Source of the DNA: a virus
Length of the DNA: 64,000 nt
Strand: one strand, 5' to 3'
Virus record (IMG/VR): IMGVR_UViG_3300036857_000203
Location: 1 to 64,000 of that record
Positions 14,523 to 39,097 of the stretch are shown here, in pieces (the stretch's first letter is position 1; each line of letters starts with the position of its first letter). Made by a program: the position numbers and the translations under genes. The notes under the pieces are model-generated. The model saw nothing but the letters and a program-made list of their open reading frames with translations. It was not told the DNA's origin and made no database searches.

Positions 14523-14972
14523 CTAAGCAGTACGCTCACGCAGCATTGCCTCGATCTCATCACGCAGTTGCTTGCGCGTAATCCCTGGCATGATTTCTTC
14601 GATGATCACGTTGGTGATCTTCTCCGTCAGAAGGCGGAGCTGTTCGTCGCTGATTCGCGTCAGGCTCTTACCCTTGGCCTCGATCTTACGTGTGTGTGGA
14701 TCGTAGATCGCTTTGCTGTAGCCGACACGCACCTTGAACGCTTCCATGGCATGATCCTTGTCGAGAAATTCGTCCGAATTGTTTGCAACAAGATGAACGA
14801 GAGCCCAAAGATACCGTAGCAACTGGATGTTCTTCTCACGTCTGATGGTGGCAGTCACATCGCTGTCCATGGAGATGATATGCAGGTCCTCTTCCGCCAT
14901 TTCAGAGGACGGAAACAATCCGACCTCACCACGATAGTGGGCACGACGCTTTCGAAGAAAGGTTTCGATCAC
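14523..14972 (-). CDS. NinB/DUF1367-like recombination accessory protein
   Basis: GTG start after AGGAGG. RREKNIQLLRYLWAL..FKVRVGY..KSLTRISDEQ. Located downstream of the ERF gene. Confidence 0.6.
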   Translation of the reverse strand: MIETFLRKRRAHYRGEVGLFPSSEMAEEDLHIISMDSDVTATIRREKNIQLLRYLWALVHLVANNSDEFLDKDHAMEAFKVRVGYSKAIYDPHTRKIEAKGKSLTRISDEQLRLLTEKITNVIIEEIMPGITRKQLRDEIEAMLRERTA

Positions 14973-14987
14973 GTCGCGCCCCTCCTT

Positions 14988-15069
14988 GCCTGCCTCACCT
15001 CGCCGAGCCAAGCCACACCGAGGCCTGTCTTGCCGTGACGAGCCAAGCCGAGCCGAGCCGCGCCATGAA
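14988..15069 (-). ncRNA. Stand-alone GGC-NN guide unit B (14 pentamers plus GGCAGGC end)
   Basis: Intergenic minus-strand sequence AT GGC GC GGC TC GGC TC GGC TT GGC TC GTC AC GGC AA GAC AG GCC TC GGT GT GGC TT GGC TC GGC GA GGT GA GGCA GGC; same grammar as the main array. Confidence 0.8.
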
Positions 15070-15075
15070 CGGGCA

Positions 15076-16212
15076 TCATTGGGTGCTCGGCAACCCTCCG
15101 CCCGTATCCTCATCATCCGGCGGATTGAGCCGCATCTCGGTGCGCTGCCATTCCGCCATCAGCATGCTCCAGTCGCTCTCATCAAAGTCGTTCTCGCGTG
15201 GGGCGACATACTGGTTCCAGAACGCCTCGGCAGCTTCCATGCTTTGCAGCTGGGCGAGTTGATTGGCGACCCAGTTCAGCGCCTCGCCTGGGTCGCTCGG
15301 CATGTTGCCGCCGCCGACCTCCGACAGGTCATTGAGCCGGCGTCCAGTCGCGGCCTGAATCATGTCGTAGGTGCCGGGGAAGTTATCGCTGATGTTCTGC
15401 AAGATCGGCTCGTTGATCGCATCCCAGGCTCTCACCTCGTCCACCGACTGCGCCTTGCCGATGTAGCGGATGAAGGCGCTCGCCCACTCATCTGGGCCCT
15501 TGCCCTGGCCAAGCACGATGCGATGCGGCTTGCTGTCGTCTGGTGTTGTCTGCGCGGGCGCCGTCTCGGCTGGCCGCTGCGAGGGCCCCGGCACCGGAGC
15601 CTTCTCCTGACGCTGATTCGCGTCCTCGTCTACATCGGGGAAGTCACCGGCAGGCACCTGGAACAAGGCCAGCAGGAAGTATTTGCGCGCGTTGGTGTGG
15701 CACTTGGCGACCGCCTTCTCGTCCCAGTTGCCCTTGCGATCGCGCGAGATGCACACCCCTGTGAAGCGCGGCTTCTCGGGCCATACCTCGCCCGATGAGT
15801 GGAGGATGCTGAACTCGTAGGTGACCGCGAGCCGGTTGCCCTCCAGTATCTCCTTGGAGACCTCGTTCTGGATCACGGCCAGACCAGCGGCGCCCATCAG
15901 CGGCGTCACCGCATAGAGCACGTCCTCCATGCGGGCATAGTTGTAGCCGAAGTACTCGTTCCGGCCCCGCTTCTCGATGGTATCGACCTTGGACATGACG
16001 GCGGCGATGGCGCCGGCAATGTGCCCGACCGGTGAGCGAAAGAACGGCGTTTCGCTGCGCGGAGCCACCGGGCCACCGTTGGTCTTCTGCGGGAGGGCCT
16101 GCTGCTCGCGCACGGCAATGGCGCGCTGAGCAATACCGCCGCCGAGGCCGCCCGGGCTCGGCTCTTTAGGCGTTGGGCTTGGAACGAGGGGCCGGCGTGG
16201 GGTGGTGGTCAT
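15076..16212 (-). CDS. ERF-family single-strand annealing recombinase
   Basis: IEKRGRNEYFGYNYARMEDV..GLAVIQ..KAVAKCHTNARKYFLLALFQVPAGD. Confidence 0.85.
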   Translation of the reverse strand: MTTTPRRPLVPSPTPKEPSPGGLGGGIAQRAIAVREQQALPQKTNGGPVAPRSETPFFRSPVGHIAGAIAAVMSKVDTIEKRGRNEYFGYNYARMEDVLYAVTPLMGAAGLAVIQNEVSKEILEGNRLAVTYEFSILHSSGEVWPEKPRFTGVCISRDRKGNWDEKAVAKCHTNARKYFLLALFQVPAGDFPDVDEDANQRQEKAPVPGPSQRPAETAPAQTTPDDSKPHRIVLGQGKGPDEWASAFIRYIGKAQSVDEVRAWDAINEPILQNISDNFPGTYDMIQAATGRRLNDLSEVGGGNMPSDPGEALNWVANQLAQLQSMEAAEAFWNQYVAPRENDFDESDWSMLMAEWQRTEMRLNPPDDEDTGGGLPSTQ

Positions 16213-21860: not shown

Positions 21861-23467
21861 AGGAACTCAGACCTTACCAAGAAGACGCCCTCCAGGCGAT
21901 CCGGCAGACGGTAGGCCAGGGGGTGAAACGTCTCGTGTGTCAATCACCTACTGGGTCAGGCAAGACGTTGCTCGCGGCAACGATCGTTGACGGCGCGCTG
22001 CGCAAGGGCAACCGGCTGTGTTTCACGGTGCCGGCGATCGACCTTGTCGATCAGACCGTGGAGATGTTCTACGCCCAGGGCATCAAGGACGTCGGCGTCA
22101 TCCAGGCTGACCACCGGATGACCAACTGGCAGATGCCAATCCAAGTCGCGAGCATCCAGACTATCCGCTCGCGCGGAATCTATCCCGAGGCCCAGGTCGT
22201 CGTCATTGACGAGTGCCACCAGTTGCACAAGGCGCACGTCAAGTGGTTGAGCGATCCTGACTGGCAAGCAGTGCCGTTCATCGGGCTCAGTGCAACTCCC
22301 TGGACGCGCGGCCTCGGGAAGCACTTCTCGTCCTTATTGGTGATGTCTACGACGAAAGAGCTGATCGAGGAGGGGTACTTATCCAGGTTCCGGGTGTTTG
22401 CGGCGGATCATCCTGATCTGAGCAATGTTCCGACCATGGGCAAGACCGGCGATTACAAGGAAGCGCCGCTGTCCACCGTGATGAGCCAGCAGCAGCTGAT
22501 GGCGAACGTGATCGAGACCTGGAGGGTGCGCCACAACGCTGACAAGACGCTGTGCTTCGCAGTTGATCGTGCGCACGCGAAGTCGCTGCAAGAGCGCTTC
22601 CTCGACGCTGGCATCTCATGCGCGTACCAGGACGCCAACACACCGAGCGCAGAGCGTGCAGAGATCAAGAGGAGATTCCATAGTGGAGATTATCGTGTGG
22701 TTTGCAGTGTCGGAACATTGTGCACGGGCGTCGACTGGGACGTCAGATGTCTCGTCTTGGCAAGGCCGACGAAGAGCGAAATGCTTTACGTGCAAATCAT
22801 TGGTCGAGGCTTACGAACGGCTGAGGGCAAGACTCACCTGCTTGTTCTCGATCACACGTCCACAACGGAGCGGCTCGGGCTGGTGACCGACGTTCACCAC
22901 GATAGCTTGTCGATGGGCAAGCTCGATGAGAATAAGGCTGCTCCGCGTAAGCCGCCGCTGCCTCGACCCTGTCCGCAGTGCAGCTGCCTGATGGCGGTCG
23001 GTGTACGAGTCTGCGAGGAGTGCGGCTTCGAGCGCAAGATCGTGTCGAAGGTCACCGAGAGAGACGGTCAGCTGGTGGAGTTCGATGGGACGTTTCGCAA
23101 GAAGGGCAAGACTGATCCCAAGTTGCTGCCGTATTCGTTCGCGGAGAAGATCAAATACTTTCAGCAGCTGCGCGGCTATGAGGTAATGCGTGGCTATCGG
23201 AAAGGTTGGGCCGCGAATCAATTCCGGGAGAAGTTCAATGAAGGCTGGCCCCCGTGGTCCTGGAACGATCTCGCACCAATGGCGCCCGGCCCCGAAGTCA
23301 CGTCCTGGATCAAATCCCGACTCATTGCATGGGCACAGAGTAAAGCTCGAACTGCTAGCGCTGCAGCTGGCACTCCACGGTCCGACAGCGGTAACACCCA
23401 GCGCAGTTCGTATTCTGGCGCGAAGCCCGCTGTGGCTGGAGACGAGACTACTCCTCCGTGGGAGTAA
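21857..23467 (+). CDS. Superfamily 2 (DExH) helicase with C-terminal zinc ribbon
   Basis: LRPYQ, SPTGSGKT, VIDECH, LSATP, GVDWD, QIIGRGLR, CPQC..CEECG. Confidence 0.92.
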   Translation: MKELRPYQEDALQAIRQTVGQGVKRLVCQSPTGSGKTLLAATIVDGALRKGNRLCFTVPAIDLVDQTVEMFYAQGIKDVGVIQADHRMTNWQMPIQVASIQTIRSRGIYPEAQVVVIDECHQLHKAHVKWLSDPDWQAVPFIGLSATPWTRGLGKHFSSLLVMSTTKELIEEGYLSRFRVFAADHPDLSNVPTMGKTGDYKEAPLSTVMSQQQLMANVIETWRVRHNADKTLCFAVDRAHAKSLQERFLDAGISCAYQDANTPSAERAEIKRRFHSGDYRVVCSVGTLCTGVDWDVRCLVLARPTKSEMLYVQIIGRGLRTAEGKTHLLVLDHTSTTERLGLVTDVHHDSLSMGKLDENKAAPRKPPLPRPCPQCSCLMAVGVRVCEECGFERKIVSKVTERDGQLVEFDGTFRKKGKTDPKLLPYSFAEKIKYFQQLRGYEVMRGYRKGWAANQFREKFNEGWPPWSWNDLAPMAPGPEVTSWIKSRLIAWAQSKARTASAAAGTPRSDSGNTQRSSYSGAKPAVAGDETTPPWE

Positions 23468-23593
23468 TCTGTTCACCGGGGCCGAGATCAACATCTTGAT
23501 GGGCGGAGTGCACCCCCATGGCTGTTGCTGCTGGGGGTGCATCCGTCAGTTACGACAGCGGGTGATAGCCCACCGTCGCAGGCTGGAGGCTAA

Positions 23594-24152
23594 GCCTGCC
23601 AAGCCCGGCCAGGACTGAACGCACCAAGCCAAGCCCGGCCCTGCCTTGCCTCGCCTCGCCAAGCCCTAGCTAGCCGGGCCAGGACTGCCACGCCAAGCCA
23701 AGCCCTGTCAGGTCCTGGCGTGCCGTGCCTTGCCGTGCCGTGCCTGCCGGGCCAAGCCGTGCCTGTCCGAGGCCTGCCGCGTCTTGCCGGGCCTAGCCCT
23801 GCCGGGCCTGCCGCGACATGCCGCGTCTTGTCAGGTCGGGACATGCCGGGCCATACCGCGCCCGCCTTGCCTCAACTGCCGCGACATGCCGAGCCTGGAC
23901 CTGCCATGTCCAGCCGTCCGAGCCGGGCCAATGCCACGCCTGCCGAGCCAAGCCAGCGTCGGGCCAAGGCATGCCGTGACATGTCATCCACGTAGATGAC
24001 GTGCCTGCCATGCCCCGCCTTGCCGCGCACCGCCGGGCCGAGCCTCGCCGGGCCAAGCCCCGCCGCACCGGGCCTGCCGGGCCGCGCCATGCCGAGCCAC
24101 GTCCCACCGGGACGCGCCACGCCAAGCCGCGCCGAGCCTGCGTTACCGTGCC
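23594..24152 (-). ncRNA. GGC-NN pentamer array: eight 59-70 nt guide-like units plus a 19-nt remnant
   Basis: The minus strand reads GGC-NN with 5-nt period (minor GGT/GTC/GAC/GCC variants). Register is reset by a 4-nt GGCA step. Units: 24075-24138, 24006-24074, 23941-24005, 23877-23940, 23809-23876, 23745-23808, 23686-23744, 23616-23685. Starts about 8 nt after the stop codon of 24161-24691. Confidence 0.85.
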
Positions 24153-24160
24153 TAAGACTT

Positions 24161-24691
24161 CTACCGTTGGGCCGCAGCCCTCGGTCTCTCCCCCGGCCGC
24201 CGACGCGGCGGCTGCGGGCGAGATGGCGGTTTCTTCTCGTCGTCTTTGCCAAGCTCATTCACGATGCTGTCGAGCCGGGCGTAGAACTCGCTTTCCAGTT
24301 TGGTTGTTCGCGCATGACCATGTGCATCGACCAGCAAGTTGCGGACTCGATCCATGAGCACTGCCAGGATGCGCGAGTTCTTCTCCTTCGTTGCACTCGC
24401 AACATCGACGTACGTGCCGACCGCCGACCTGGGATCGGGGTCGTGCCGATATCGCGGAAGCACGCGCGAGAGATCGATGTCGTTGATCTCGGGACGGGGA
24501 CAGCTACGGATGATCTCCTCGGCACGCGCCAAGAGATACCTTCGATGAACTCGCGCCGGGTCCCAATCGAACAACTTGTTCAACTCGCTGTTCTGATCCC
24601 TCCCCGCCTCCACGACATCGCGTGCGTTGATCGTGCCGTTACCGTCGCGCAGCTCATCGAGTGCGGTGATCTGCTCGGTCGTAAGATTCAT
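24161..24691 (-). CDS. Accessory protein of the RAMP-array locus (unknown function)
   Basis: Overlaps the RAMP stop codon by 4 nt. GTINARDVVEAGRDQNSELNKLFDWD..YLLARAEEIIR. Confidence 0.8.
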   Translation of the reverse strand: MNLTTEQITALDELRDGNGTINARDVVEAGRDQNSELNKLFDWDPARVHRRYLLARAEEIIRSCPRPEINDIDLSRVLPRYRHDPDPRSAVGTYVDVASATKEKNSRILAVLMDRVRNLLVDAHGHARTTKLESEFYARLDSIVNELGKDDEKKPPSRPQPPRRRPGERPRAAAQR

Positions 24692-25506
24692 GTGCTCGCT
24701 CCTGGTTGCTCGGGTTGATCGCTTGAACGAGAGCGCGTTACGGGATCGCGCCGCCGCATCACCTCAGCGTCGTACCAGCCCAGCAAGTCGGCGCTCTCTT
24801 CGTCAGCGAACGATGGATCATCGAGCGCTGCGAGCTGTGCCTCGCGCCCCTCTTTCTCGACAATGTCCATCCATTCGGGATGATCGTGGCTCACGACATC
24901 CCAGGAGCCGAAAGAGAATGCGCCGCGTTCCTGGCGCCCGTCGCCGACACCGACAATCATGCCGGCGTTCATCGCTAGATTGAGCACGTCGTCGAGCGTG
25001 ATCAGGTCGCGCACATAGCGAAAGCTCATGGAGCACGCCCAGCGCGGGAAGTAGGCGCGCGTGCGGATGTCGGGCGTCTTGGCGATGCCGGCCTGCCGCA
25101 CCATCGACATGTGCAGCTGCGGGATGCCGTACAGGAAGATCGTCGGCGTGGTTACGGTAATGAGCCGGCCCACTTCCGCTCGTGTTGCGCCCGGCGTGTC
25201 GACTGCCGCCTGGGCGAGCGCTTTCTTGATGCTGTTGCCGGGGAGGTGGACGGCGGCTGGCGCATCGGCGTCGCGGCAGCGATAGACCGAGGCGCGGAAC
25301 TCTTCGAGCGGATCGTGCTTGAGGGTGGCTGCGCGTGCTGCCCGGTTGGGAGCGCGTGGGGGGAGGAGTATCTGGCGCTTCGCCTTCTCGGTGAAGCGGT
25401 TCATCACGAGCGCGCTTGTGCCCAGGAGATGGAGAGTCGCGCCCACCATCTGCAATCGACTGATGAGCGGGCGCTCCGCACCAGTCTGCTTTGCCGCTTT
25501 CGCCAT
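24688..25506 (-). CDS. Cas7/Csm3-like RAMP-fold RNA-binding protein
   Basis: RAMP hallmarks: N-terminal strand ATLHLLGTSALVM, HLPGNSIKKAL (cf. IPGSSLKG of Csm3/Cmr RAMPs), a long insertion MVRQAGIAKTPDIRTR, and a C-terminal Gly-rich loop GMIVGVGDGRQERGAFSFGSW. Confidence 0.75.
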   Translation of the reverse strand: MAKAAKQTGAERPLISRLQMVGATLHLLGTSALVMNRFTEKAKRQILLPPRAPNRAARAATLKHDPLEEFRASVYRCRDADAPAAVHLPGNSIKKALAQAAVDTPGATRAEVGRLITVTTPTIFLYGIPQLHMSMVRQAGIAKTPDIRTRAYFPRWACSMSFRYVRDLITLDDVLNLAMNAGMIVGVGDGRQERGAFSFGSWDVVSHDHPEWMDIVEKEGREAQLAALDDPSFADEESADLLGWYDAEVMRRRDPVTRSRSSDQPEQPGAST

Positions 25507-25582
25507 ATTGAGGGTTCCTGTGATCGAGTGTATATAGAACAGGCGGATGCCTATCCAACGCAGACTATATCAGGAAACTACG

Positions 25583-25792
25583 ATGCACAAGCGGGAAGAG
25601 TCGGCGAACCTGAACGAGGGACTACGCGCCGCGATCGACGCTTGCGGTTCGCGCTATGCCCTGGCCAAGCGGCTCGGCCTGACACCGGTAGCAGTGCTTG
25701 ATTGGTGGCGCATCCCGGCGGACTTGGTGGTCGAGGTGGAGAGAGTATCGGGCGTGCCCCGCGAGAGGCTACGCCCGGAGCTGTACTACTAA
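25583..25792 (+). CDS. Cro/YdaS-like HTH regulator
   Basis: AIDACGSRYALAKRLGLTPVAVLDW..IP..VERVSGVPRERLRPELY; divergent from the RAMP gene. Confidence 0.85.
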   Translation: MHKREESANLNEGLRAAIDACGSRYALAKRLGLTPVAVLDWWRIPADLVVEVERVSGVPRERLRPELYY

Positions 25793-26337
25793 CGCCCGCG
25801 CAGGAAGCGCTCAGCCTCGCGACCGGTGAGCGGCGGCTTGCGCAGCTTGCCGGTCAGCGCGGCTTGCTTGTGCTCCTCACGCACCCTACGCTTCTCCTTC
25901 TCCACGAGCCGCCTCTGCTCGACAGTGGGAGCTTTGTTGTGACTGTTAGCGACGGCGTAGGCCGCCTCAGCGACATCCTTGGCGAGAGGGCTCCGCTTGA
26001 GATAGGTGGGAATCTCAAGCTCATCCAGCTGACCAGCAAGTGGTTTGTCGCCGGGCTTCTCCTGCACGACGGGCGCGTCGTTAACGTCGCTCCGATCCTC
26101 GGCTACATGCACGGCTGGACCCGGCAGCGGGTCCTTCGCTACGCCCGCATCCGGCACTGGACGGCCACAGAGCTTTGAAGCTTGCCGCAGCCTAAGCCGG
26201 TCGAGCGTCTTGCGCAGACCAGGAAGCTTGACCTCGGCATTCACCAGGGCCGCGAGCGCGCCGTTGCGTTGCATCTCCAGGCGAGCGACTTGGGCACGCA
26301 GAAGGCGGATGTCTCTTTGGAGCTTTGTCTCTTTCAT
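25789..26337 (-). CDS. Hypothetical protein
   Basis: MKETKLQ.. after CATGAAAGG and a strong promoter; contains LEIPTYLKR. Confidence 0.6.
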   Translation of the reverse strand: MKETKLQRDIRLLRAQVARLEMQRNGALAALVNAEVKLPGLRKTLDRLRLRQASKLCGRPVPDAGVAKDPLPGPAVHVAEDRSDVNDAPVVQEKPGDKPLAGQLDELEIPTYLKRSPLAKDVAEAAYAVANSHNKAPTVEQRRLVEKEKRRVREEHKQAALTGKLRKPPLTGREAERFLRGR

Positions 26338-26370
26338 GGTGTTACCTTTCATGTATCGCACTAGATAGGT

Positions 26371-26406
26371 AGTGTAGCACATCTGCAACACTATGTCAAG
26401 ATGGCA
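26371..26406 (-). promoter_or_regulatory. Sigma70-like promoter with overlapping operator
   Basis: TTGACA-17 nt-TACACT on the minus strand; TGTCAAGATGGCA at 26394-26406. Confidence 0.7.
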
Positions 26407-26512
26407 GATACCTATCTCAGTGGCATCTGACAGCCGCCCATTATTGCGATTACGCTGATGCAGATCGCCACCGCCAGGACGAGGATCGCCACCTCGCGCA
26501 TGGTGTAATGCC

Positions 26513-27097
26513 TCATCGGCCAACCCTCTCTGAGGCCGGCACCCAATGCGTGAGTGGCCACGGCACATTGCGCTGATCAGGATGATCACCCGGCCATCCG
26601 TTGCAGTGCCCGATCTCGTGCCGCAGCAGCAGACCAGTGTTCCAGCCGCGCGTACGCATCACCTCGTCCTCGACCAAATAGATCACGCAGCTCTTAGCGT
26701 TGTGACGGGCGCATGCCAGCATCTTTGGATTATAGACGTTGCATGCTGCGCGCAGCGCTTCGAACGTCGGCAGCATTATGATCGTCAGGTCGCCATCGTA
26801 GGGCTTGTCGTACTCAGGTGGCGGCAAGATCGGATACTGCGTCTGCGGCGGACGTGGTGCCGGCGCCAGATACCCCATGTCATTCGGATTGTGGGGTCGA
26901 TTGTTGGTGGGCTGGAGATCAGCCTTGGGCGCCGGGGGCGGTATGGGCACGACCTTGGAGGGCAGCGGCACGATCTTGGGAGCGGCTGTGATGTTGTTCA
27001 CGCGCTGGGGGTGGACCGGCGAACTGATGCTGATCACCCCCAGCGTTATTGCCGCCAGAGCAAGCGCGAACCAAGCTAGCTGCTTGTCGGTGAACAT
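26513..27097 (-). CDS. Secreted or membrane-anchored HExxH metallopeptidase-like protein
   Basis: N-terminal hydrophobic helix, Pro-rich linker, LLRHEIGHCNGWPGDH. Confidence 0.65.
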   Translation of the reverse strand: MFTDKQLAWFALALAAITLGVISISSPVHPQRVNNITAAPKIVPLPSKVVPIPPPAPKADLQPTNNRPHNPNDMGYLAPAPRPPQTQYPILPPPEYDKPYDGDLTIIMLPTFEALRAACNVYNPKMLACARHNAKSCVIYLVEDEVMRTRGWNTGLLLRHEIGHCNGWPGDHPDQRNVPWPLTHWVPASERVGR

Positions 27098-27271
27098 GTT
27101 GGACCTTTCATGCGTTACCTGTGAGGATTATCCCCACAGCGATGACGACGATGACGACAAAGATAGTTGCGCGTATAGATGTTCCCGCCGAGAACATCTA
27201 ATTCGGGCCGTTGTGTATGCGGTCGAATACCTGCCCCATTGTGTGGGTCTATGTGTTGAAGTGACGTCATT

Positions 27272-27487
27272 TCAGCCCAGCTGGCTCACGATCTGCTCGA
27301 ACTTCCGCTCGCTGGTGGTGAGCCGCATGATCACCAGGAGCCGCAGCAAGCGTGCTGCAGGCTCTGGGATGGTGGCGCCCTCGGCGTAACGGTAGGGCGT
27401 ACGACGCCCGAGACCGAGGACCTGGGCCATACGCAGATGCGTCCAGCCCAGGGTCTCTCGTGCATTACGGTATTCGCTCGTGGTCAT
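27272..27487 (-). CDS. XRE-type HTH protein
   Basis: EYRNARETLGWTHLRMAQVLGLGRRTPYRYAEG..IPEPAARLL. Confidence 0.8.
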   Translation of the reverse strand: MTTSEYRNARETLGWTHLRMAQVLGLGRRTPYRYAEGATIPEPAARLLRLLVIMRLTTSERKFEQIVSQLG

Positions 27488-27495
27488 GGTCTCCT

Positions 27496-27690
27496 CTAAT
27501 CTTCCATCAGTGCTGATCCAGGATCGACGTTGCCCTCGATGATGAAGCAGTCCTTGCGTGTCAGCGGCTTGCCGCCGTTGAACTCCAGGCTGATCGTTGA
27601 GCCTGGGAGCCAGACCTTGACCTCGCGGTCCAGGTCCTCGGGTTTGACTGCGTCGATGATCGTCCGCAGCTGTCGAGCGCTGAGGCTCAT
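27496..27690 (-). CDS. Hypothetical protein
   Basis: Coupled ORF in the leftward early operon. Confidence 0.5.
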   Translation of the reverse strand: MSLSARQLRTIIDAVKPEDLDREVKVWLPGSTISLEFNGGKPLTRKDCFIIEGNVDPGSALMED

Positions 27691-27918
27691 CGTCCTCTCT
27701 CCTTCAGAAACGCGATGGTGGCCGCAATCTCCGCAGCCCAGGCCTCCAGGTCGGCGATGGTGTGCGCGACGTTGGAATGCTGTCGCAGCGTCTCGGTGCG
27801 GATGTCCGCCAGCGAGAGCGGCAATGGCCTGTTCTCGGTGGGCTGCGATGGCGTCGGGACCGGCGGATCGCTCAGCAGCGGCCCGTGCTCCTGGATGGCG
27901 TCCTCCAGGGTGCTGATC

Positions 27919-28746
27919 TCACGCTTCTTGTGCTTGCGCTTCGCCATGGTCTTGCTCCTTTCTGAGTTGGGTTGAGACATAGTCGTGGTGGTCGAACGGG
28001 ATTACCGGAATGTTGTCGGCGAGCCCGTCCAGGTCGGGGCAGTCGCCGCCGATGTAGTTGGCGACCATGTGCCCGATGATCGCGCCCTGGTGGCGCTGGC
28101 GTAGCTGATAGGGCTTATCGGCGTCGGGCGGCAGCACGGTGAGCACATCGAAGAAGCTGTAGGACCCCCCCTTGTGCCGCAGCACGCCCACGGCAGTCAG
28201 TTCGGTGTTGGCGAGGCTGATCGACGTGTTCCGGTGCTTCTCGCTCTCGCGCATGATCATGCCGGCGAAGCCGCACATGGCGACCATGCCGCCGGCCTCA
28301 AAGATGTCGAGCTTGCTGCGCTCGGCAATGCCGCCCAGGGCGTGCCAGGAGAAGAACGCGAGCTTGGTGCGCTGAGCACTGAGCTTGCCTCTGCGCTGTA
28401 GCCGCATGACATAGGTGCGCACCATCACGCCATGCTCGCGGCCCGGGACCAGCGGATGCTTGTCCACCTCCCAGGTGAGTAGCTCCACGATGGCAGAGCG
28501 CTTGCGCTTGAAGTGCCCGTTGACGAAGCAGCAGCGCTCGCCCTGGGCGGCCTTGAGGCGCTGCACGCCGGCCATGAACTGGTCGGCAGCTTGCCTGGGG
28601 CCGCCCGTGATCGAGCCCAGGAACTTCTCCATGGCCTGGGTCCAGAGCGTGCAGCCCGGGGTGAGTATGCCGGCGCCCATCATCTGGCGTTCAGCCAGAT
28701 CGCGGGTGAGTTGCGCGATGAAGATGCGGCCGGCGGTGCTGATCAT
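27919..28746 (-). CDS. Hypothetical protein
   Basis: 275-aa ORF in the early operon. Confidence 0.6.
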   Translation of the reverse strand: MISTAGRIFIAQLTRDLAERQMMGAGILTPGCTLWTQAMEKFLGSITGGPRQAADQFMAGVQRLKAAQGERCCFVNGHFKRKRSAIVELLTWEVDKHPLVPGREHGVMVRTYVMRLQRRGKLSAQRTKLAFFSWHALGGIAERSKLDIFEAGGMVAMCGFAGMIMRESEKHRNTSISLANTELTAVGVLRHKGGSYSFFDVLTVLPPDADKPYQLRQRHQGAIIGHMVANYIGGDCPDLDGLADNIPVIPFDHHDYVSTQLRKEQDHGEAQAQEA

Positions 28747-29207
28747 CGCAGCATCCCCATGAAGCGGCCCTGCATCGCGTCGTAATCGTTCATGTGTAGC
28801 GGCGAGAGCGTCGCCGGCCCACGCTCGGGGCGCAGGATGAAGAAGTTCCCAGAGAGCACGTTTCCCCAGCGATCCTCGGCATTGATTATCAGCACCTCGC
28901 GCCGGTCAGGGTGCTCGCTCGGGCGCGGTCCCTCTTTCGCTTCGGTCATCGTGTTCACCGTGGCAATCCAGGCCTCGCAGATGAAGGCTAAGCGCTTCAC
29001 ATGCTTTGCCTGGAACATCATGCGCAGCCCGCGCTGGGTGATGTCCTTCTCCTCGTCGCTCGACCAGGGTGTGGCGATCAAGACGTGCTCATCATTGCCA
29101 TCGACGACATGCCACATCGGAAGAATCTCCCCGCTCTCGCCGAATATCCGCATGGCGTTCTCGGCAGCGTTGGCAAAGAAGTCTTCAAGCTCGGTCTTGG
29201 GGGTCAT
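28743..29207 (-). CDS. Hypothetical protein
   Basis: FICEAW..PSEHPDRREVL motif seen in phage early proteins. Confidence 0.65.
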   Translation of the reverse strand: MTPKTELEDFFANAAENAMRIFGESGEILPMWHVVDGNDEHVLIATPWSSDEEKDITQRGLRMMFQAKHVKRLAFICEAWIATVNTMTEAKEGPRPSEHPDRREVLIINAEDRWGNVLSGNFFILRPERGPATLSPLHMNDYDAMQGRFMGMLR

Positions 29208-29303
29208 GTCTCGCGTCCCTTCATGTTCTCCGGTAATCACGCCCGCCCCGGAAGCTCCTCAGCAAACAGGGCGGGCGCTTATCCGCTGGGAGCGGTCGGG
29301 GGA

Positions 29304-29525
29304 CTATTCCCCAGCGGCATCTGGCGGCAGGAGCCTGCCATCGACGTACCGGTAATTGACCGGGTCGTCGCTCTCTACGACGCGGGTCTCGCGCACCATC
29401 ATCCAGCGCATGGAGAGGTCGAAGACGTTCTGCTCGGCCTCCTCGCGAGTGGCGAATCGCAGTGCGTTGCCGCACCATTGCCCAGAGTTGTCGGCGATCA
29501 CTTCGGGGGCGTAGCTCTTGGGCAT
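29304..29525 (-). CDS. Conserved small phage early protein
   Basis: MPKSYAPEVIADNSGQWCGNALRFATREEAE..RVVESDDPVNY. Confidence 0.7.
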   Translation of the reverse strand: MPKSYAPEVIADNSGQWCGNALRFATREEAEQNVFDLSMRWMMVRETRVVESDDPVNYRYVDGRLLPPDAAGE

Positions 29526-29526
29526 G

Positions 29527-29805
29527 TCAGTCTTTCCTTTCATGGTCTGGGTTGGGGTCCTTGGCTTCACTGTCAAACACCATTGCCGCTGCCTCCAGGA
29601 ACTTCTTCTTGTTCTCCTGGTGTGCGCCATGCACCTGCACGACGATCATGGCGGCGGCCTTGAGAAACATCGCGATAAGACATGAGAAGACATCGCGCCG
29701 CCGGCCAGCAATCTCAAATGCCTGAGTCGTGTCCTTGATCAGGTGATAGAGCTTGCCCTCGGCATAGCCCTGCAGGTCCTGCTGGAGTTGGGTGAGCGGC
29801 ATCAC
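29527..29805 (-). CDS. Hypothetical protein
   Basis: Coupled ORF. Confidence 0.5.
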   Translation of the reverse strand: MMPLTQLQQDLQGYAEGKLYHLIKDTTQAFEIAGRRRDVFSCLIAMFLKAAAMIVVQVHGAHQENKKKFLEAAAMVFDSEAKDPNPDHERKD

Positions 29806-30074
29806 ACGGGCTCCTTCTGCCAGATGCCCTGGGCAATGCAGGCAATCTGAAGCTCGCGTTCAAACGCCTTCACGACACGCTTGAAGGTGGCCTTCGTCGG
29901 GTCGCAATGGCGGGTGCGGCTCCAGGTGCCGCTGCTTACGCTGTATTCCCATTGGCTCCATTCCCAGGCGGGATGCGCGGCTACGCGGGTGCGCTTCACC
30001 CGATATTGCTGATCGCCCACGACAATGTCGTAGCGCTCGGTGACGTTTCTCCAATCAATGGCTGGCTTGGTCAT
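29802..30074 (-). CDS. Hypothetical protein
   Basis: CATGAAAGG RBS. Confidence 0.55.
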   Translation of the reverse strand: MTKPAIDWRNVTERYDIVVGDQQYRVKRTRVAAHPAWEWSQWEYSVSSGTWSRTRHCDPTKATFKRVVKAFERELQIACIAQGIWQKEPV

Positions 30075-30272
30075 GTTTCAGTTCCTTTCATGGGTTCACG
30101 GCGGATAATTTCGGCGCGCTGGCACTCCCAGCCGCGTTCGTCCGCGACAGCGCCGGCCACTGCCAGGGCGGTGGCATCGTCAGTGGCGTTCACGGTGAGG
30201 CTCTGAGGATCGAAGACATCCAGCGAGCCCTCGGGGCGGACGTGGACGAGGAGGAGATAGCGGGTCATGGGT

Positions 30273-30617
30273 TTAGTGGTCATGGTGCCAAGTCACTTTG
30301 CCGCCATGACCAACGTGGGCGTGCATGCCGGCGTGGGTGTTGGGAGCGCGACCCGCTAAGGCCTGAGCTTGACGAACGAGTTCAATGAACATTGGCGACC
30401 CGGTCTTGGCCAAGATTCTGAACGAGCACGCATCCGACACGCCGTCCTTGCTCGTGTCCTCCCAGCCGGCGAAGGCGGGCGCGCCGGTTGCGGGATCGAT
30501 CACGAGGCGGATGCGCCCAGCAGCGAGCCCCTGGGCGAGGCGGGTGACCGCCTCGCGTACTTCCTTGGCGCGCTCCTGGATGGTCTGGCGCGGACGCAGT
30601 TTCGTGTCGCATGCCAT
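30273..30617 (-). CDS. Small partner of the AAA module
   Basis: MACDTKLRPRQT..FAGW..DGVSDAC; GAGG RBS. Confidence 0.65.
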   Translation of the reverse strand: MACDTKLRPRQTIQERAKEVREAVTRLAQGLAAGRIRLVIDPATGAPAFAGWEDTSKDGVSDACSFRILAKTGSPMFIELVRQAQALAGRAPNTHAGMHAHVGHGGKVTWHHDH

Positions 30618-30627
30618 AGTGCCCTCC

Positions 30628-31410
30628 TCACAGGTCCAGCTGGCGCGGCGTAGCGCTGTAGCCCTCGAAGGGCAGATCATCGTCCAGGTCCACGCCCCGG
30701 CCCTCGCCCTCGCTTGCCTCGACCGGGGCGGCGTCGTCCAGGTCCAGGAACGAGATGCGGGCTTCCTCCAGGCGCTGGATGGCGACGTTGTCCACCTCAA
30801 CGGCAGCGCCCTCGCCGGCCTTGACGATGTCGCGGGCAACCTTCCTGGCCACCTCGATGGCCTTGCTCACGCGCTCGCTGGCGTTGGGTTCCAGCATCTT
30901 GCCCAGGGTGCGGGCTTCGTTGGCGGCCTTGCGGATGGCCTGGGGATCGAGGTTCTTGACGCCATCGCGCATGGCGTCGACGAAGTCGCGCACCTGTTCG
31001 TTGATGGCGCGCACCGCCTCTACGTCATCGGCACTCACGCGGCCGATCATCACAGTGACGCCCACGTAGGTCCAGGTCGCGGTGGCGTTGAAGTCCTCGG
31101 CAAGCTGGCGCGCCTCGCGCACCGCCTGACGAAGCCTCTCCTCGCGCTCGGTCGGGCACATCAGGCCGAAGTCGCCGGCCTTGACGCAAGCCGACTGAAT
31201 CTTGGAGCGGGCAGCGGAGCGGACCTTGGAGGCGCGAGCTTGCTCGGCGGGGTCCTTGGTGGTGCGCTCGGTTTCCCAACGGGCGCGGCCCTCACCCTCG
31301 GCAGTGATATGATCCTGCTCAAGCTCCAGGGTCTTGTACTTGACGTTGCCCTTGACGGTGGTGCGGGCGCGCACCAGCAGGCCGGGGCGGAGGGTTGCGA
31401 TATCAGACAT
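30628..31410 (-). CDS. DUF3150-like partner of the Ycf46-type ATPase
   Basis: Helical protein ending in R.LDL motifs, like the ATPase; adjacent to it. Confidence 0.6.
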   Translation of the reverse strand: MSDIATLRPGLLVRARTTVKGNVKYKTLELEQDHITAEGEGRARWETERTTKDPAEQARASKVRSAARSKIQSACVKAGDFGLMCPTEREERLRQAVREARQLAEDFNATATWTYVGVTVMIGRVSADDVEAVRAINEQVRDFVDAMRDGVKNLDPQAIRKAANEARTLGKMLEPNASERVSKAIEVARKVARDIVKAGEGAAVEVDNVAIQRLEEARISFLDLDDAAPVEASEGEGRGVDLDDDLPFEGYSATPRQLDL

Positions 31411-31452
31411 CGTGGGTTCCTTTCACCGGGTTGGAGTAACCCGTGCCACGTG

Positions 31453-31481
31453 TATATGTCACCGTGGCACGGTCTTGTCAA
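31453..31481 (-). promoter_or_regulatory. Sigma70-like promoter with palindromic operator
   Basis: TTGACA-17 nt-CATATA; TGTCACCGTGGCA at 31457-31469. Confidence 0.7.
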
Positions 31482-31487
31482 TACATG

Positions 31488-33110
31488 TCATGCTAAGTCT
31501 AGCGCACGCTCGGTAGAGAACGCCGGACGCTCGGCGTCGGGGGTGGTGGCGAGACGAGCGCGCTTGCTCCAGGTGCGCAGGCGCTTGACTTGGTCGGCCA
31601 TGCTGTCCACCAGCGGCACGACCTTGCTGGCGGCGTTGAGGATGTCGGTGGCTGCGAGCGCACGCTGACCATCGGTGAAGCTCGCGAACAACGCCTCCTG
31701 CACGAGGTTGGCGACCTCTGCCGCCGTGAAGGTGTCGGTGGCTTTGACGATGGCCGCCGTGTCCTCGGTGCTGAACGGCTGGCGCTTGAACTTGGCCAGG
31801 GTGACGTTGAGCACTTCGGCGCGCTCGCGCGCAGTCGGAACGTCCAGGAACCACATCTCATCCCAGCGCCCCTTGCGGAGAAGCTCGACGGGGAGCCGGT
31901 CAGGGTCATTGGCCGTTGCCAGGATGAAGGCCTCGGACTTGCGGTCATTCATCCAGCTGAGCAACACCGCGAGTTTGTCTGCGGCCACGCCGCCGTCACC
32001 GGCAGGACCCGCGCCACCGGAGAGGGTCTTGTCCACCTCATCGAGCCAGAGCACGCACGGCCCCAGGGCATCGACGGTGTCGAGCATGGCGCGGATATTC
32101 TGCTCGCTCTCGCCCAAGAACTTGCTGCCGGTCGCGCCCAGGTCGCCTTGGACGAGCGGGCATAGCCATGACGTGGCGAGGGCTTGGGCAGTGAAAGTCT
32201 TGCCGCTGCCGGGAATGCCCACGAGCAAGCAGCCCTTGGGGCGCTGGATGCCGTAGGCACGAGCCTCGGGGCTCCAGGCGAGCTTGCGCTGGACAAGCCA
32301 GGGCTTCAGGGCATCGAGCCCGCCCACCGCGTCCAAGCCGCCAGGGAGCGGCTCAACCCAGCGCAGCATGCCGTTGGAGGCGATGATGCGCTTCTTCTCC
32401 TCACTGATCACCGCTGGCTCGATGGCGCGGCTTTGCACGATGCTCTTGGCGAAGCAGCCTTCGGCCTGCGGGCCGGTGAGGCCGACAGCGGCGTCCACGA
32501 TGGCTTCGCGCTTGCCGTTGAGCGGCTGCACCTTGCCAGGGTTCTGCCGGATGGCAGTGGCAATGGCCACATCGGCCATGCGGCCAAGCTCTTCACGGTC
32601 GGGCAATGGCCACTCCACCGTGACGGCGTCGTTGGCAACATCACTCGGAACCTTGGCCCCAGGCGCAAGCACGATGACGCTGGTGCCGGTGGCGGGCAGG
32701 GTGCGGGAGAGATTGCGCAGCCAGCGGGTGACGGTGACACCCGGGCCGCCATCGCACCACTTGTGCAGATCGCGGAGAATCCAGACCTCCTTGCCGCCGT
32801 CACGGGAACGCTCGCTGATCTTCTTGAGCAGGCTCACCGCATCGATGGGGGCGTTTGCCCCACCCTGGAGGGCGGCTGCGATGGGGTCGGTGGAGGCATC
32901 GTTGCCCATGCCGGCGACGGGATTGCCGCCCACATCGGTGGCACCCTCGGCGCAATCCCAGAAGAACGGCATGTAGCCCGCGCTCTTGGCGGCTTCGATC
33001 AGGCATAACTCGATCCGCCTCTCCTCGCGGGAGTTGACCCAGAGCACGCCGTTGCGTGCCTTGATCAGTGATGCGACATCAGCGCCCTGGACTTGAGACT
33101 TGGTCGGCAT
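31488..33110 (-). CDS. Ycf46/SpoVK-like AAA+ ATPase
   Basis: Degenerate N-terminal AAA domain (WVNSREERR, ILRDLH), VGGLDALKPW, GIPGSGKT, WLDEVDK, ATAND..ELLRKGRWDE. Confidence 0.9.
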   Translation of the reverse strand: MPTKSQVQGADVASLIKARNGVLWVNSREERRIELCLIEAAKSAGYMPFFWDCAEGATDVGGNPVAGMGNDASTDPIAAALQGGANAPIDAVSLLKKISERSRDGGKEVWILRDLHKWCDGGPGVTVTRWLRNLSRTLPATGTSVIVLAPGAKVPSDVANDAVTVEWPLPDREELGRMADVAIATAIRQNPGKVQPLNGKREAIVDAAVGLTGPQAEGCFAKSIVQSRAIEPAVISEEKKRIIASNGMLRWVEPLPGGLDAVGGLDALKPWLVQRKLAWSPEARAYGIQRPKGCLLVGIPGSGKTFTAQALATSWLCPLVQGDLGATGSKFLGESEQNIRAMLDTVDALGPCVLWLDEVDKTLSGGAGPAGDGGVAADKLAVLLSWMNDRKSEAFILATANDPDRLPVELLRKGRWDEMWFLDVPTARERAEVLNVTLAKFKRQPFSTEDTAAIVKATDTFTAAEVANLVQEALFASFTDGQRALAATDILNAASKVVPLVDSMADQVKRLRTWSKRARLATTPDAERPAFSTERALDLA

Positions 33111-33144
33111 AGGAGGATTACCTTTCATGGGTTACGGGAATACG

Positions 33145-33173
33145 TATATGCCACGGTGGCATCCTGGTTTCAA
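33145..33173 (-). promoter_or_regulatory. Sigma70-like promoter with palindromic operator
   Basis: TTGAAA-17 nt-CATATA; TGCCACGGTGGCA at 33149-33161. Confidence 0.65.
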
Positions 33174-33312
33174 GCCCCACGGCGAAAGATTACATTGATC
33201 ACAGCGAGCGCGGCTATTACGACGACAACGGTGCCTGCTGTGGTCTGTAAGCTGTAGCCGTTCCAAAGCGTAATTGCCGCCACAATAATCACGGTTGCCC
33301 AGTTATCGCTGG

Positions 33313-33516
33313 TCATGACGCGCACCCCTCGCACACGACTTGGACGTGGCGCACGCTCGCCTTGGGAAACTTGGCCTGAAGCTCGGCCCGCACGAGGTGG
33401 GCTGGGGCATCGGCGTGGAACGGCAGCGGATAGGTGCCGGCGGGATAGGCGCCGCCCTCGGGGAAGGTGGCGGTCCAGCAATGGCCTGGGCGGTTGGGCT
33501 TGATGACGATGGTCAT
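33313..33516 (-). CDS. Hypothetical protein
   Basis: CATGAAAGG RBS; YPLPF motif. Confidence 0.5.
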   Translation of the reverse strand: MTIVIKPNRPGHCWTATFPEGGAYPAGTYPLPFHADAPAHLVRAELQAKFPKASVRHVQVVCEGCAS

Positions 33517-33544
33517 TGTCAGGTTCCTTTCATGCGTGTATAGC
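33516..33544 (+). promoter_or_regulatory. Putative promoter for guide unit C
   Basis: TTGTCA-17 nt-TATAGC; predicted start about 33550, immediately before the first GGC. Confidence 0.55.
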
Positions 33545-33551
33545 GGTTGAT

Positions 33552-33640
33552 GGCAAGGCAAGGCGCGGCAGGGCACGGCCCGGCGATACAGGGCTGGGCC
33601 CGGCACGGCGCGCCTCGGGGGGGGGTCATGCCCCCTCCCC
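33552..33640 (+). ncRNA. Stand-alone GGC-NN guide unit C (13 pentamers) followed by a G/C hairpin
   Basis: GGC AA GGC AA GGC GC GGC AG GGC AC GGC CC GGC GA TAC AG GGC TG GGC CC GGC AC GGC GC GCC TC, then G9-TCATG-CCCCCTCCCC. Confidence 0.8.
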
Positions 33641-34336
33641 AATATCGAGCTTGTCTTCACCCCAGGGCAGGCCATAGCGGACGGCGCAGGCCTTGCCGTA
33701 GCCTACTGCGAGGCTCTTCTTGGCGGTGGGGCTGTCGCCGCCCAGGGCAAGGTTGCAGAACACGCAGCGGCCGGTGAGCGTGGCGCTCTCCTTGGCGACC
33801 TTGGCCGGCTCGCAGGCGAACTCACGCAGGCGCTTGGCGATGGCCTCGGTGCGACCGTTGGCAACGCGCGCCGGCTGATACTGCCCATCGACCGTTACGC
33901 GGCCCAGCCACACGCGGCGCGGGCCCCAGTCGCCTTCCTCGAAGACGTCATTGTCCTTCACATCGATGCTGCCGGGGACCTTCGCCTTGGCGCTGGCGAT
34001 CGAGAGGCGAACGACGGTGTCGGCCTCGGGGACGGCCAGGGTGATGGCGGGCTTCTTGAGGCTGACCTTGGCGCGGTCGAACAACTGCAACACGCCGCCC
34101 AGGTCGCCAACGGCTTGAATGGCCTGCGCGGGCTTGGCCTGGGGCGCTAGCGACCAGACCTGATCGCCGTAGCGGTTCTTGCCCTGGTAGGTACCCAGGG
34201 TGACTTCCTGGGTGCGGCCGTCGCGCTTGTAGACGATGACGGTGCCACCGGGCTCGGCGTTGGCGGCCTTGTCCTCGGGGATGCGAACGCCCCAGGTGGT
34301 GGCGTCGAGCTTCACGTAGGAGGTCGGGAAAGACAT
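33626..34336 (-). CDS. DUF6011-like Zn-finger early protein
   Basis: C-terminal GRCVFCNLAL..SLAVGYGKACA..LPWG; start MSFPTSY after CATGAAAGG. Confidence 0.75.
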   Translation of the reverse strand: MSFPTSYVKLDATTWGVRIPEDKAANAEPGGTVIVYKRDGRTQEVTLGTYQGKNRYGDQVWSLAPQAKPAQAIQAVGDLGGVLQLFDRAKVSLKKPAITLAVPEADTVVRLSIASAKAKVPGSIDVKDNDVFEEGDWGPRRVWLGRVTVDGQYQPARVANGRTEAIAKRLREFACEPAKVAKESATLTGRCVFCNLALGGDSPTAKKSLAVGYGKACAVRYGLPWGEDKLDIGEGA

Positions 34337-34375
34337 GTTCAGTGGCCTTTCATGGGTGAGAGCGACAACGGGATA

Positions 34376-34404
34376 CACGTATAGCACCGCAATGCATCTG
34401 TCAA
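34376..34404 (-). promoter_or_regulatory. Sigma70-like early promoter
   Basis: TTGACA followed by GCTATACG at promoter spacing; head of the leftward early operon. Confidence 0.55.
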
Positions 34405-34943
34405 TGGGTGGATTACGGTAATCGTCGCTGCGGTGCAGCAATAAGTTCCTGGGTGGGGATAGTGGGGATAGCGCGCAAAGGGCTTCCCGAATCAGACGCA
34501 ATCGCTTAAACGCATCAAGCCCCACAAGGATCGCTCCCTGCAGGGCTTGGTTTATGTCCGCGAGCTTGGTCGGCGCTCGGACACAAGGTCTGAAACACAA
34601 GACCTTGTACTCCGCCCCCCGACCAACAGCAAGCGGTAGATGCGCTCGATGGAACGCGACCATCGAGGCGGTGCGCTCTCAACGTTGCCGGAACCGCACC
34701 TTCCGGCACGCTAGCGGAGCATTGGCGGTGCCTCGCGCGCGCGTGCGCGGCAGCGGATATCTGGAGAGAAAGAGAGGGGTCTACCGAGTAGAGCACTATC
34801 TCTCACACTCACTGTTACCTTTGGATAGAACAGAAAGGTTCTTAGTAATTAGAAAGAATCTTTCTAGAACATCTAAGGAAGATAGGAAGAGGAGAGAATG
34901 GTGGTAAGGCACTAGAGGGGCAGAACCGGGTTGTAACAACTGA

Positions 34944-35420
34944 GTGGATACTGCCACGATGGCACGAGACAACTGGAGACGCATAGCGCAAGAGGCCTGG
35001 AATGCTCCTGGCTGGAAGCAAGCGGCCACTGAATACGCTCGTGATCCGCATGGATTACTTGATGACATGCCAGCAAGGGACCCTTGGGTGCGCCGGCATC
35101 AGTGGGAGAGACACAAGCGGCTTGTGCAGTTGGAGCGGGTACTGATTGGCATTGCTGTGCATGGGCCAAGCACGATGCAAGAGCCTGAGCATGCGAAGTT
35201 CATTGCGTGGGCCAAGGTGAGCTGGCGGTATACATATACGCAGATCATGGCCAAGCAGCGCGAGGAGTGGTTGAGGCGCGAGGCCGAATCGCGTCAAGCT
35301 CCTGCTGCCCATCCTGCTGGCTGTGCGTGTTGGGACTGTGTGCTGGCGCTGTATGGGGCAGCTGCCAAGCACCGTGCGGTGCTCGACCAGAGGGCGAGGG
35401 CAAAGGACGAGGCGTTCTGA
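34944..35420 (+). CDS. Hypothetical protein
   Basis: AWNAPGWKQAATEY motif; HPAGCACWDC. Confidence 0.55.
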   Translation: MDTATMARDNWRRIAQEAWNAPGWKQAATEYARDPHGLLDDMPARDPWVRRHQWERHKRLVQLERVLIGIAVHGPSTMQEPEHAKFIAWAKVSWRYTYTQIMAKQREEWLRREAESRQAPAAHPAGCACWDCVLALYGAAAKHRAVLDQRARAKDEAF

Positions 35421-35596
35421 TGAGCCCGGAGCAGGATGATAAGGGAGCGTGGTTCATTACGTTGCCCAATGGCGAGCGGGCGGAATTTGGCAGCAACGCT
35501 GAGGCGTGGCGCTGGCTTGACCGGCATGAGCGGCGCGAGACGTGGGTGAGCAGCAAGGCACAGTGGCGCATGCCGGCAAAGTACGATGCGCCGTGA
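35420..35596 (+). CDS. Hypothetical protein
   Basis: FGSNAEAWRWLDR motif. Confidence 0.5.
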   Translation: MSPEQDDKGAWFITLPNGERAEFGSNAEAWRWLDRHERRETWVSSKAQWRMPAKYDAP

Positions 35597-38779: not shown

Positions 38780-39097
38780 ATGGCGGGCGCGGCGAAGAGC
38801 GAAGGCGGCGAGACCCTGCACGAGCAGAGGAACCTGACCGAAGAGGAAATCGCGGAGCGCACGGCGGCCAAGCTCAAGGCTGACGAGGAGAAGAGCCAGA
38901 AGGTGCGTGACGAGCTGGACGCCGAGAGGAAGAAGGCCGAGGAGCAGGCCAAGAAGGAGGCCGAGGAGGTCAGGGCCGACAAGGAGAAGGCCGAGCAGGA
39001 GGCCAAGAAGGGCGCCAAGGCCAAGAAGGAGGAGCCCGCCGCGTCCCAGCCGGCCGCCGCCGCCCCAGCCGGCAGCCACGGCAGCCGGGCGCGCTAG
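38780..39097 (+). CDS. Charged coiled-coil hypothetical protein
   Basis: AGGAGG RBS; E/K/A-rich. Confidence 0.6.
   Translation: MAGAAKSEGGETLHEQRNLTEEEIAERTAAKLKADEEKSQKVRDELDAERKKAEEQAKKEAEEVRADKEKAEQEAKKGAKAKKEEPAASQPAAAAPAGSHGSRAR

Follow-up and report, generated by a model that had tools for sequence, protein, structure and literature searches.

What is a single run of GGC-headed pentamers for, when it lies opposite in strand to every gene around it and 8.0 kb from the gene of the RAMP protein that would have to read it? The question is raised by the IMG/VR virus record IMGVR_UViG_3300036857_000203, of which positions 1 to 64,000 were analyzed (this 64,000-nt stretch is the window referred to below), and by an element within it that we call guide C. 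We found that the variable bases of guide C spell the most conserved motif of the DUF6011-like protein family, [DE]AVG[HQ]LSGVLA[LF][LF], as relatives of this phage encode it. Judged from its sequence, guide C is quite likely a real detached guide gene of the VIPR system of this phage. Its probable use is against related phages, as a weapon that lies next to the poorly matching copy of the gene carried by the phage itself.

VIPR has been described in three 2026 bioRxiv preprints, with Escherichia phage SUSP1 and a Pseudomonas fulva prophage (type II) as type examples. According to the main text of one of them, a VIPR system consists of a minimal RAMP protein (Vipr), an accessory gene (vap) and guide RNAs (vrRNAs) of 9-16 GGY/NN repeats, whose two variable nucleotides (NN) pair with double-stranded DNA while one base is skipped per unit, usually the wobble base of a codon; the targets named there are competing phages, satellites, and other VIPR loci (10.64898/2026.04.26.720920). 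One Vipr protomer per repeat is reported to hold G1, G2 and Y3 and to present N4N5 (10.64898/2026.04.26.720927). Solo vrRNAs, meaning those with no Vipr on the contig or within 20 kb, are reported in the main text of the third preprint from F5 satellites and VIPR-null SUSP1-like phages, with self-matches lower than non-self matches and an identity threshold of 0.8 (10.64898/2026.10.15.759431). An original prediction, made from the letters of the window alone, had read guide C as a guide RNA of gapped code served by a distant RAMP protein, which agrees with the published GGY/NN repeat, the 1-nt skip and its wobble position.

Guide C and the gene family matched by its variable bases

Guide C reads GGCAA GGCAA GGCGC GGCAG GGCAC GGCCC GGCGA TACAG GGCTG GGCCC GGCAC GGCGC GCCTC, giving the NN string AA AA GC AG AC CC GA AG TG CC AC GC TC, and its two irregular units are unit 8 (TAC) and unit 13 (GCC). 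The sequence ACGGCG (33605-33611) may be its functional end, in which case 11 full units remain. With 13 tandem GGY-NN units and variable NN, the tract falls inside the published range of 9-16 units for vrRNAs, and its repeat motif and strand logic are those of the array downstream of vipr. It lies within a 109-nt spacer between two minus-strand genes, with its guide-sense strand antisense to the leftward operon, and the region is non-coding, as homologues place the start of the downstream 67-amino-acid (67-aa) gene at 33516. A GGYNN caller set to a minimum of 6 of 8 units was applied to the entire 72,435-nt genome in both orientations and found only three tracts, namely the main array, a second detached guide (guide B), and guide C, for which it counted 12 units in register with 11 of them conforming. 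A repeat pattern search gave 13 forward matches and 1 reverse match (14), and its reversed control pattern gave 0 and 0. The plus-strand unit of 13 pentamers opposite to the surrounding genes, as first predicted, was thus borne out, as was the RAMP gene about 8 kb away (8.0 kb, to its end at 25506).

Among all 1-nt-skip matches of guide C in its own genome, the best lies in the neighboring DUF6011-like gene, 464 nt from the guide. The predicted decoding and the scores given for this site (8/13 dinucleotides and 19/26 nt at 34080-34117) are arithmetically right, and the skipped base falls on the wobble position. A score of 19/26 or more somewhere in the own genome was reached by 32 of 300 order-shuffled guides, so the score of the own match is meaningless alone, and it is the location that is notable. 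At 73%, the own allele lies below the 80% NN-match cut-off of the preprints. The target lies 220-260 nt into the gene, and no N-terminal block of the family is better conserved than its motif, AVGDLxGVLALF. The own DUF6011-like protein had no Pfam match at E<=0.01 and matched phrog_4046 (annotated as unknown function) with E 1e-12; its family comprised 39 proteins at E<=0.001, and 31 of the 38 non-self members carry precomputed PF19474.

A search for related loci with the single DUF6011-like protein found no relative. With a 17-sequence subset of the 39-sequence family alignment, 71 viral, 80 metagenomic and 6 genomic loci were gathered (157 loci, 142 unique sequences). In the viral set (71 loci, 420 kb), guide C had 10 matches of at least 20/26, against a mean of 0.11 for order-shuffled guides, and its top score of 23 was equalled by 1 of 300 shuffles. 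When 0, 2, or 3 nt were skipped instead of one, the maxima in this set were 17-18 and no match reached 19. All ten viral matches, as well as all 30 metagenomic and genomic matches listed, lie on the orthologous motif with the skipped base on the wobble position. The best non-self match, in loci L022 and L096, was 23/26 (88%), and matches of at least 80% were found in 21 of the 142 unique loci, against 73% for the own allele; guide C thus has non-self targets at or above 80% under the 1-nt skip while its self-match stays below 80%. Over all IMG/VR contigs, a degenerate 11-unit target pattern gave two matches only, both in DUF6011 homologues. The original prediction had held that guide C aims at a homologue of the adjacent gene and had set a search of homologues as the check beforehand; in that search DUF6011-like alleles beat both chance and the own copy (up to 23/26 versus 19/26).

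A pattern of the body of guide C itself (7 units, Y at the third base) gave 0 matches in viral contigs, and no iso-guide was present in 82 VIPR-bearing loci, where the best score of 16/22 was within the range of shuffles. Among the 157 DUF6011 loci, GGYNN arrays were called in L020 and L108 only, and none stood at the syntenic spacer; these arrays (L020:5837-6150 and L108:5660-7315) lie 1.2 to 3.3 kb downstream of a DUF6011-family gene.

The VIPR machinery and the comparison with a collinear sibling

A Vipr protein is characterized by an RRM core, a G-loop, and a thumb. The 272-aa protein encoded by vipr is a Vipr homologue by profile, and its modeled fold is that of a Cas7/Csm3 RAMP. A profile of 44 homologues matched PDB entry 36pp_D ('SUSP1 Vipr protein') with E 5.8e-7 over positions 149-198, including the G-loop GVGDgR, whereas a single-sequence search gave E 0.02. 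The AlphaFold (AF2) model (pLDDT 87.6, pTM 0.81) matched Csm3, Cmr6, and type VII Cas7 chains of the PDB in Foldseek, with 50 matches at E<=0.001 and Csm3/Cas7/Cmr6 chains at E 1.5e-5 to 1e-3 and probability up to 1.00. The 176-aa protein encoded next to it had no Pfam or PHROG match. Coordinates of all features are given in Table 1. At gathering thresholds, no Rfam family matched the window (0 matches), and megablast of 23000-35000 against phage records gave no match.

Table 1. Coordinates of guide C, its flanks, its neighboring genes, and the VIPR components
Feature	Position	Strand	Remarks
Guide C	33552-33616	+	13 GGY-NN pentamers in a single register, 11/13 with perfect GGC
Promoter-like element	33516-33544	+	TTGTCA 33516-33521, 17-nt spacer, TATAGC 33539-33544
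Hairpin G9-tcat-gCCCCCTCCCC	33617-33640	+	G9 33617-33625, tcat, gccccctcccc 33630-33640
Own near-target	34080-34117	+	codons QAVGDLGGVLQLF of the DUF6011-like gene; 19/26 (8/13 dinucleotides), skipped bases on wobble positions
DUF6011-like gene, 236 aa	33626-34336	-	first gene of the leftward operon
67-aa gene	33313-33516	-	downstream of the guide-bearing spacer; syntenic marker in relatives
AAA ATPase gene	31488-33128	-	follows the 67-aa gene
vipr (RAMP) gene, 272 aa	24688-25506	-	8.0 kb from guide C, on the opposite strand
176-aa partner gene	24161-24691	-	in the position of vap; open reading frame overlapping the vipr stop
Main vrRNA array, about 550 nt	23594-24142	-	units joined by a 4-nt GGCA/GGC step (staggered type)
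Guide B, second detached guide	14990-15064	-	found by the GGYNN caller

The record of a sibling phage, G001 (49,918 nt), aligns collinearly with window positions of about 9.6 to 34.4 kb, where nucleotide identity is 66-95%; the record is 72% complete, and no Vipr was found in it. Where our phage carries the VIPR locus (23554-25799; array, 176-aa gene, vipr and upstream region; 2,245 nt), G001 has 46 nt between the same flanking genes (G001:C1:39327-39373); by this alignment the whole VIPR locus is an insertion relative to G001. Likewise, the segment with guide B (14936-15113, 177 nt) corresponds to 36 nt in G001 (G001:C1:31615-31651), while the position of guide C is taken there by an unrelated 306-nt spacer without pentamers. 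The original prediction had proposed looking for related phages with an empty site; such short empty sites exist in G001 for the VIPR locus and for guide B, whereas at guide C the unrelated spacer stands instead. The three guide elements and vipr thus come and go together, which supports the action in trans that had been predicted for guide C.

Each of these guides matches G001 better than its own genome. The DUF6011 allele of G001 scores 22/26 against guide C, or 22/24 over 12 units (85-92% of the NN bases). Guide B scores 23/28 on the G001 orthologue of its adjacent gene versus 19/28 on the own gene, and the last guide of the main array (23685-23600, minus strand) scores 28/34 on G001 38878-38928, in the gene beside the VIPR insertion site, versus at most 15/20 anywhere in the own genome (sliding 10-unit windows). 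The own stretch orthologous to this last target (about 23100-23170) loses its similarity to G001 exactly at the target, with flanks that are 87% identical.

Further relatives were compared at the spacer of guide C. Homologues of the 67-aa gene were found by tblastn in 11 loci. In L080, L129, and L010 the DUF6011 gene is followed, as in our phage, by the 67-aa gene and the AAA ATPase, and in L081, L086, and L089 the first two genes were seen before the contig ended or the match stopped. The spacers of L080, L081, L129, L086, and L089 contain a conserved hairpin and no pentamers, and guide C is absent from all syntenic relatives compared. By these alignments, it is this VIPR-bearing phage alone that has guide C, as an insertion or a replacement. 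The conserved hairpin (CCAGGGGCGGCAATCCCGCCGTCCCTGG) stands 5' of the 67-aa gene at L080:1449-1500 and also in L081, L129, L010, L086, and L089; in our phage the segment with guide C replaces it.

Relatives of vipr are encoded on at least 544 viral contigs, and 80 of these loci were examined. Arrays were called in 74 of the 80, all of them on the strand of vipr and all but one at most 2.5 kb from it. A detached guide was seen in one of these loci only (L169:6135-6199), 3.8 kb upstream of its vipr gene. The two sites within the locus that it matches best (18/26, which are low scores) are no more than 250 nt away. In our main array, a palindromic hairpin (ACGTCATC-TACGTG-GATGAC) at 24002-23975 (minus strand) breaks the pentamer register at the start of the third unit.

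Flanks of guide C and the rival explanations

Upstream of guide C, the original prediction had noted TTGTCA-17-TATAGC as a promoter and, downstream, a G9/C-rich hairpin. Both sequences are present. The promoter-like element agrees with the sigma-70 consensus at 9 of 12 positions, and its -10 hexamer ends 7 nt 5' of the first GGC. Sites of equal quality number 15 in 144,870 nt, and the chance that one falls within the right 40 nt is roughly 0.4%. The promoter and terminator scan of 32500-35500 made 0 and 0 calls; on the promoter side this follows from a -10 (TATAGC) without the conserved final T. In relatives, TAGAGC occupies the position of TATAGC, which suggests that the promoter would have been made from pre-existing spacer sequence. 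Taken together, the element stands at the correct distance and is moderately convincing as a putative promoter.

The hairpin, in contrast, is doubtful as a part of the guide. It overlaps the stop codon (33626-33628) of the DUF6011-like gene, it has no U-run and drew no terminator call, and neither guide B nor the array units share it. Folding gives -21.1 kcal/mol for the plus strand and -21.0 for the minus strand, values too close to indicate a preferred strand. Because the relative L083, which has no guide, carries a similar hairpin over the stop codon at its gene end, we left the hairpin out of guide C; it may belong to the DUF6011-like gene. The G9/C9 homopolymer at 33617-33625, directly after the stop codon of that gene, could vary in length by slippage.

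Several observations weigh against guide C as a working vrRNA gene. In the solved SUSP1 complex Vipr reads two guanines, both of which are missing from unit 8 (TAC), and unit 13 reads GCC. The GGCA/GGC boundary that closes the units of the main array and of guide B is missing, the -10 hexamer lacks the consensus final T, and there is no canonical terminator. The exact 12-unit target gave 0 matches in viral contigs and the exact 11-unit target gave 0 in metagenome and 0 in genome contigs, and no perfect or near-perfect target was found in any collection, the best match being 23/26. All of these speak for a decaying relic, that is, a former vrRNA gene or stray array fragment that is now neither expressed nor loaded and whose DUF6011 matches record past targeting. 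We regard such a relic as unlikely, since 11 of the 13 units are perfect, broken units comparable to TAC (GTC, GAC, TGC) occur just as often within the main array and related arrays, the promoter-like site is correctly placed, and guide C still matches the allele of the collinear G001 at 85-92% of its NN bases. Two further points stand against the favored reading. An array opposite to the strand of vipr was seen in 0 of the 80 related VIPR loci, and the homologues nearest to the own gene (L080 and others) reach 20-21/26, a margin of only 1-2 over the own allele, so that self-immunity at 73% is an assumption resting on a bioinformatic cut-off.

In a second rival explanation, the adjacent own gene (19/26) is the real target and guide C is a cis autoregulator that tunes the phage's own leftward operon. 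The best own-genome match does lie in the neighboring gene, 464 nt away, and guide B and the detached L169 guide show the same adjacency. On the other side, higher scores come from foreign alleles (up to 23/26), the own score does not exceed what shuffled guides reach (32/300), and the preprints, as far as their main texts go, report no self-match of 80% or more and self-matches lower than non-self matches; we therefore hold autoregulation in cis to be very improbable. Still harder to sustain is the idea that the tract is not a guide at all and serves, on the minus strand, as a GCC-NN element of the operon mRNA or DNA (a binding array of another protein) or is a compositional repeat. Read on the operon strand, the tract does fall within the 5' leader of the 67-aa gene, but this explanation, which we find scarcely credible, leaves three things unaccounted for: the codon-register match to DUF6011 that appears under the 1-nt skip only, the identity of the repeat with that of the array beside vipr, and the absence of the tract from all syntenic relatives. 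As a separate candidate, a minus-strand GCC-NN leader bound by a protein (for example, TRAP-like) was dropped, given the array beside the RAMP gene and the result of the skip rules.

Predicted action, adjacency to own alleles and comparison with known systems

If guide C is a detached vrRNA gene, a weak promoter resembling sigma-70 sites would drive its transcription rightward, antisense to the leftward operon. RNA polymerase would start near 33551, at or next to the first GGC, and a transcript that opens with the first GGC would need no 5' processing. By analogy with the SUSP1 complex, Vipr protomers made from the gene 8 kb away would coat the GGC triplets and present the NN bases; according to the published mechanism, the filament would then bind double-stranded DNA reading AAxAAxGCxAG..., form a gapped R-loop and block transcription. 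On co-infection or superinfection, the DUF6011-like gene of a sibling would be silenced, and because the leftward early operon begins with that gene, binding inside it would have a polar effect on those that follow. Silencing would spare the phage's own allele, which differs at 7 of the 26 bases read.

The position of the guides relative to the own alleles of their targets deserves attention. Guide C, guide B, and the last guide of the main array each stand beside the own orthologue of the gene that they match in G001, the distance from guide B to its best match in the own genome being 201 nt, while the last guide of the array adjoins the own orthologue of its target. The chance of a genome-wide best match lying so close is about 1-2% each for guides C and B (distance over genome length, a post hoc estimate). 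Further, in protein identity between G001 and our phage, the DUF6011 allele reaches 54% and the AAA ATPase two genes downstream reaches 92%. These observations, together with the L169 guide and its nearby in-locus matches, would fit linked cassettes of weapon plus immunity, in which a detached guide and the adjacent resistant allele spread in the manner of an RNA-guided allele drive or marker exclusion. We put this forward tentatively and consider it possible rather than probable. Under such a scheme, a silenced sibling would be rescued only by recombination that imports the resistant allele together with the guide, and mosaic allele replacement would, if it is true, be concentrated in the genes targeted by cassettes. 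The joint movement of guide and immune allele is a testable idea.

Compared with the VIPR systems of SUSP1 and the P. fulva prophage, the system of our phage has a homologous RAMP protein, a two-gene operon, GGY/NN guides of 9-16 units, a 1-nt skip on the wobble position, targets in related phages, and self-matches below 80%. It differs in that the conserved 3' pseudoknot tail is absent, as the array units abut through the 4-nt GGCA/GGC step without tails (the invariable structured 3' pseudoknot of type II vrRNAs was not seen), and in the placement of guide C, which is 8 kb away from vipr, runs on the other strand, and has a promoter-like element of its own. The main array resembles the staggered vrRNA arrays described in a legend (fig. 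S18, 10.64898/2026.04.26.720920), where pentamers are continuous and each unit closes with what also opens its successor; the arrays of L166, L168, and L171, the three inspected, have the same form, with units that abut through the same GGCA/GGC boundary. Guide C, in contrast to such arrays, is a single unit outside any array and has no such boundary.

With the solo vrRNAs, as the main text of their preprint presents them, guide C shares that it stands alone, that its self-match is lower than its non-self match, and that it appears to belong to a conflict among related mobile elements (10.64898/2026.10.15.759431). It falls outside the solo definition because vipr lies 8.0 kb away on the same record. 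Solo vrRNAs, unlike guide C, are described as sitting at a former VIPR locus or in satellites, and as targeting vipr, vrRNAs, satellites, or host REP decoys, whereas guide C sits beside the own allele of the targeted family. At the level of sequence, guide C thus has the properties that define a vrRNA and lies outside both the tailed type II form and the solo class. The main texts of 10.64898/2026.04.26.720920 and 10.64898/2026.10.15.759431 contain no description of detached guides that we found, and their supplements may list such guides; relative to these main texts, what differs here is that a phage with a VIPR system carries a detached guide, which runs opposite to vipr in strand and adjoins the own allele of its target.

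Similar arrangements exist outside VIPR. Virus-borne mini-arrays of clustered regularly interspaced short palindromic repeats (CRISPR) aim at close relatives, and free-standing homing endonuclease genes adjoin the resistant allele of their target. Guide C shares with these the logic of a weapon against siblings that is linked to self-immunity, and differs from them in that its machinery is VIPR and the predicted outcome is silencing rather than cutting.

VIPR is known mainly from phages of Escherichia and Pseudomonas, with tailed guides beside vipr. Our phage, a high-GC environmental phage of the staggered-array clade, would also scatter single guides through its genome, and annotation of vrRNAs that is restricted to the vicinity of vipr will miss such guides. 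Together with G001, it offers a natural pair for sibling exclusion by VIPR, in which 19/26 versus 22-23/26 would be a measure of the mismatches that protect self. As a minor observation, all four isolated guides start with ATGGC, the AT standing directly 5' of the first GGC (33547-33554 for guide C, 15070-15060 on the minus strand for guide B, L169:6120-6139, and L171:9896-9912), and GTT[CG]ATGGC, common to guides B and C, is a possible shared start context (n=4).
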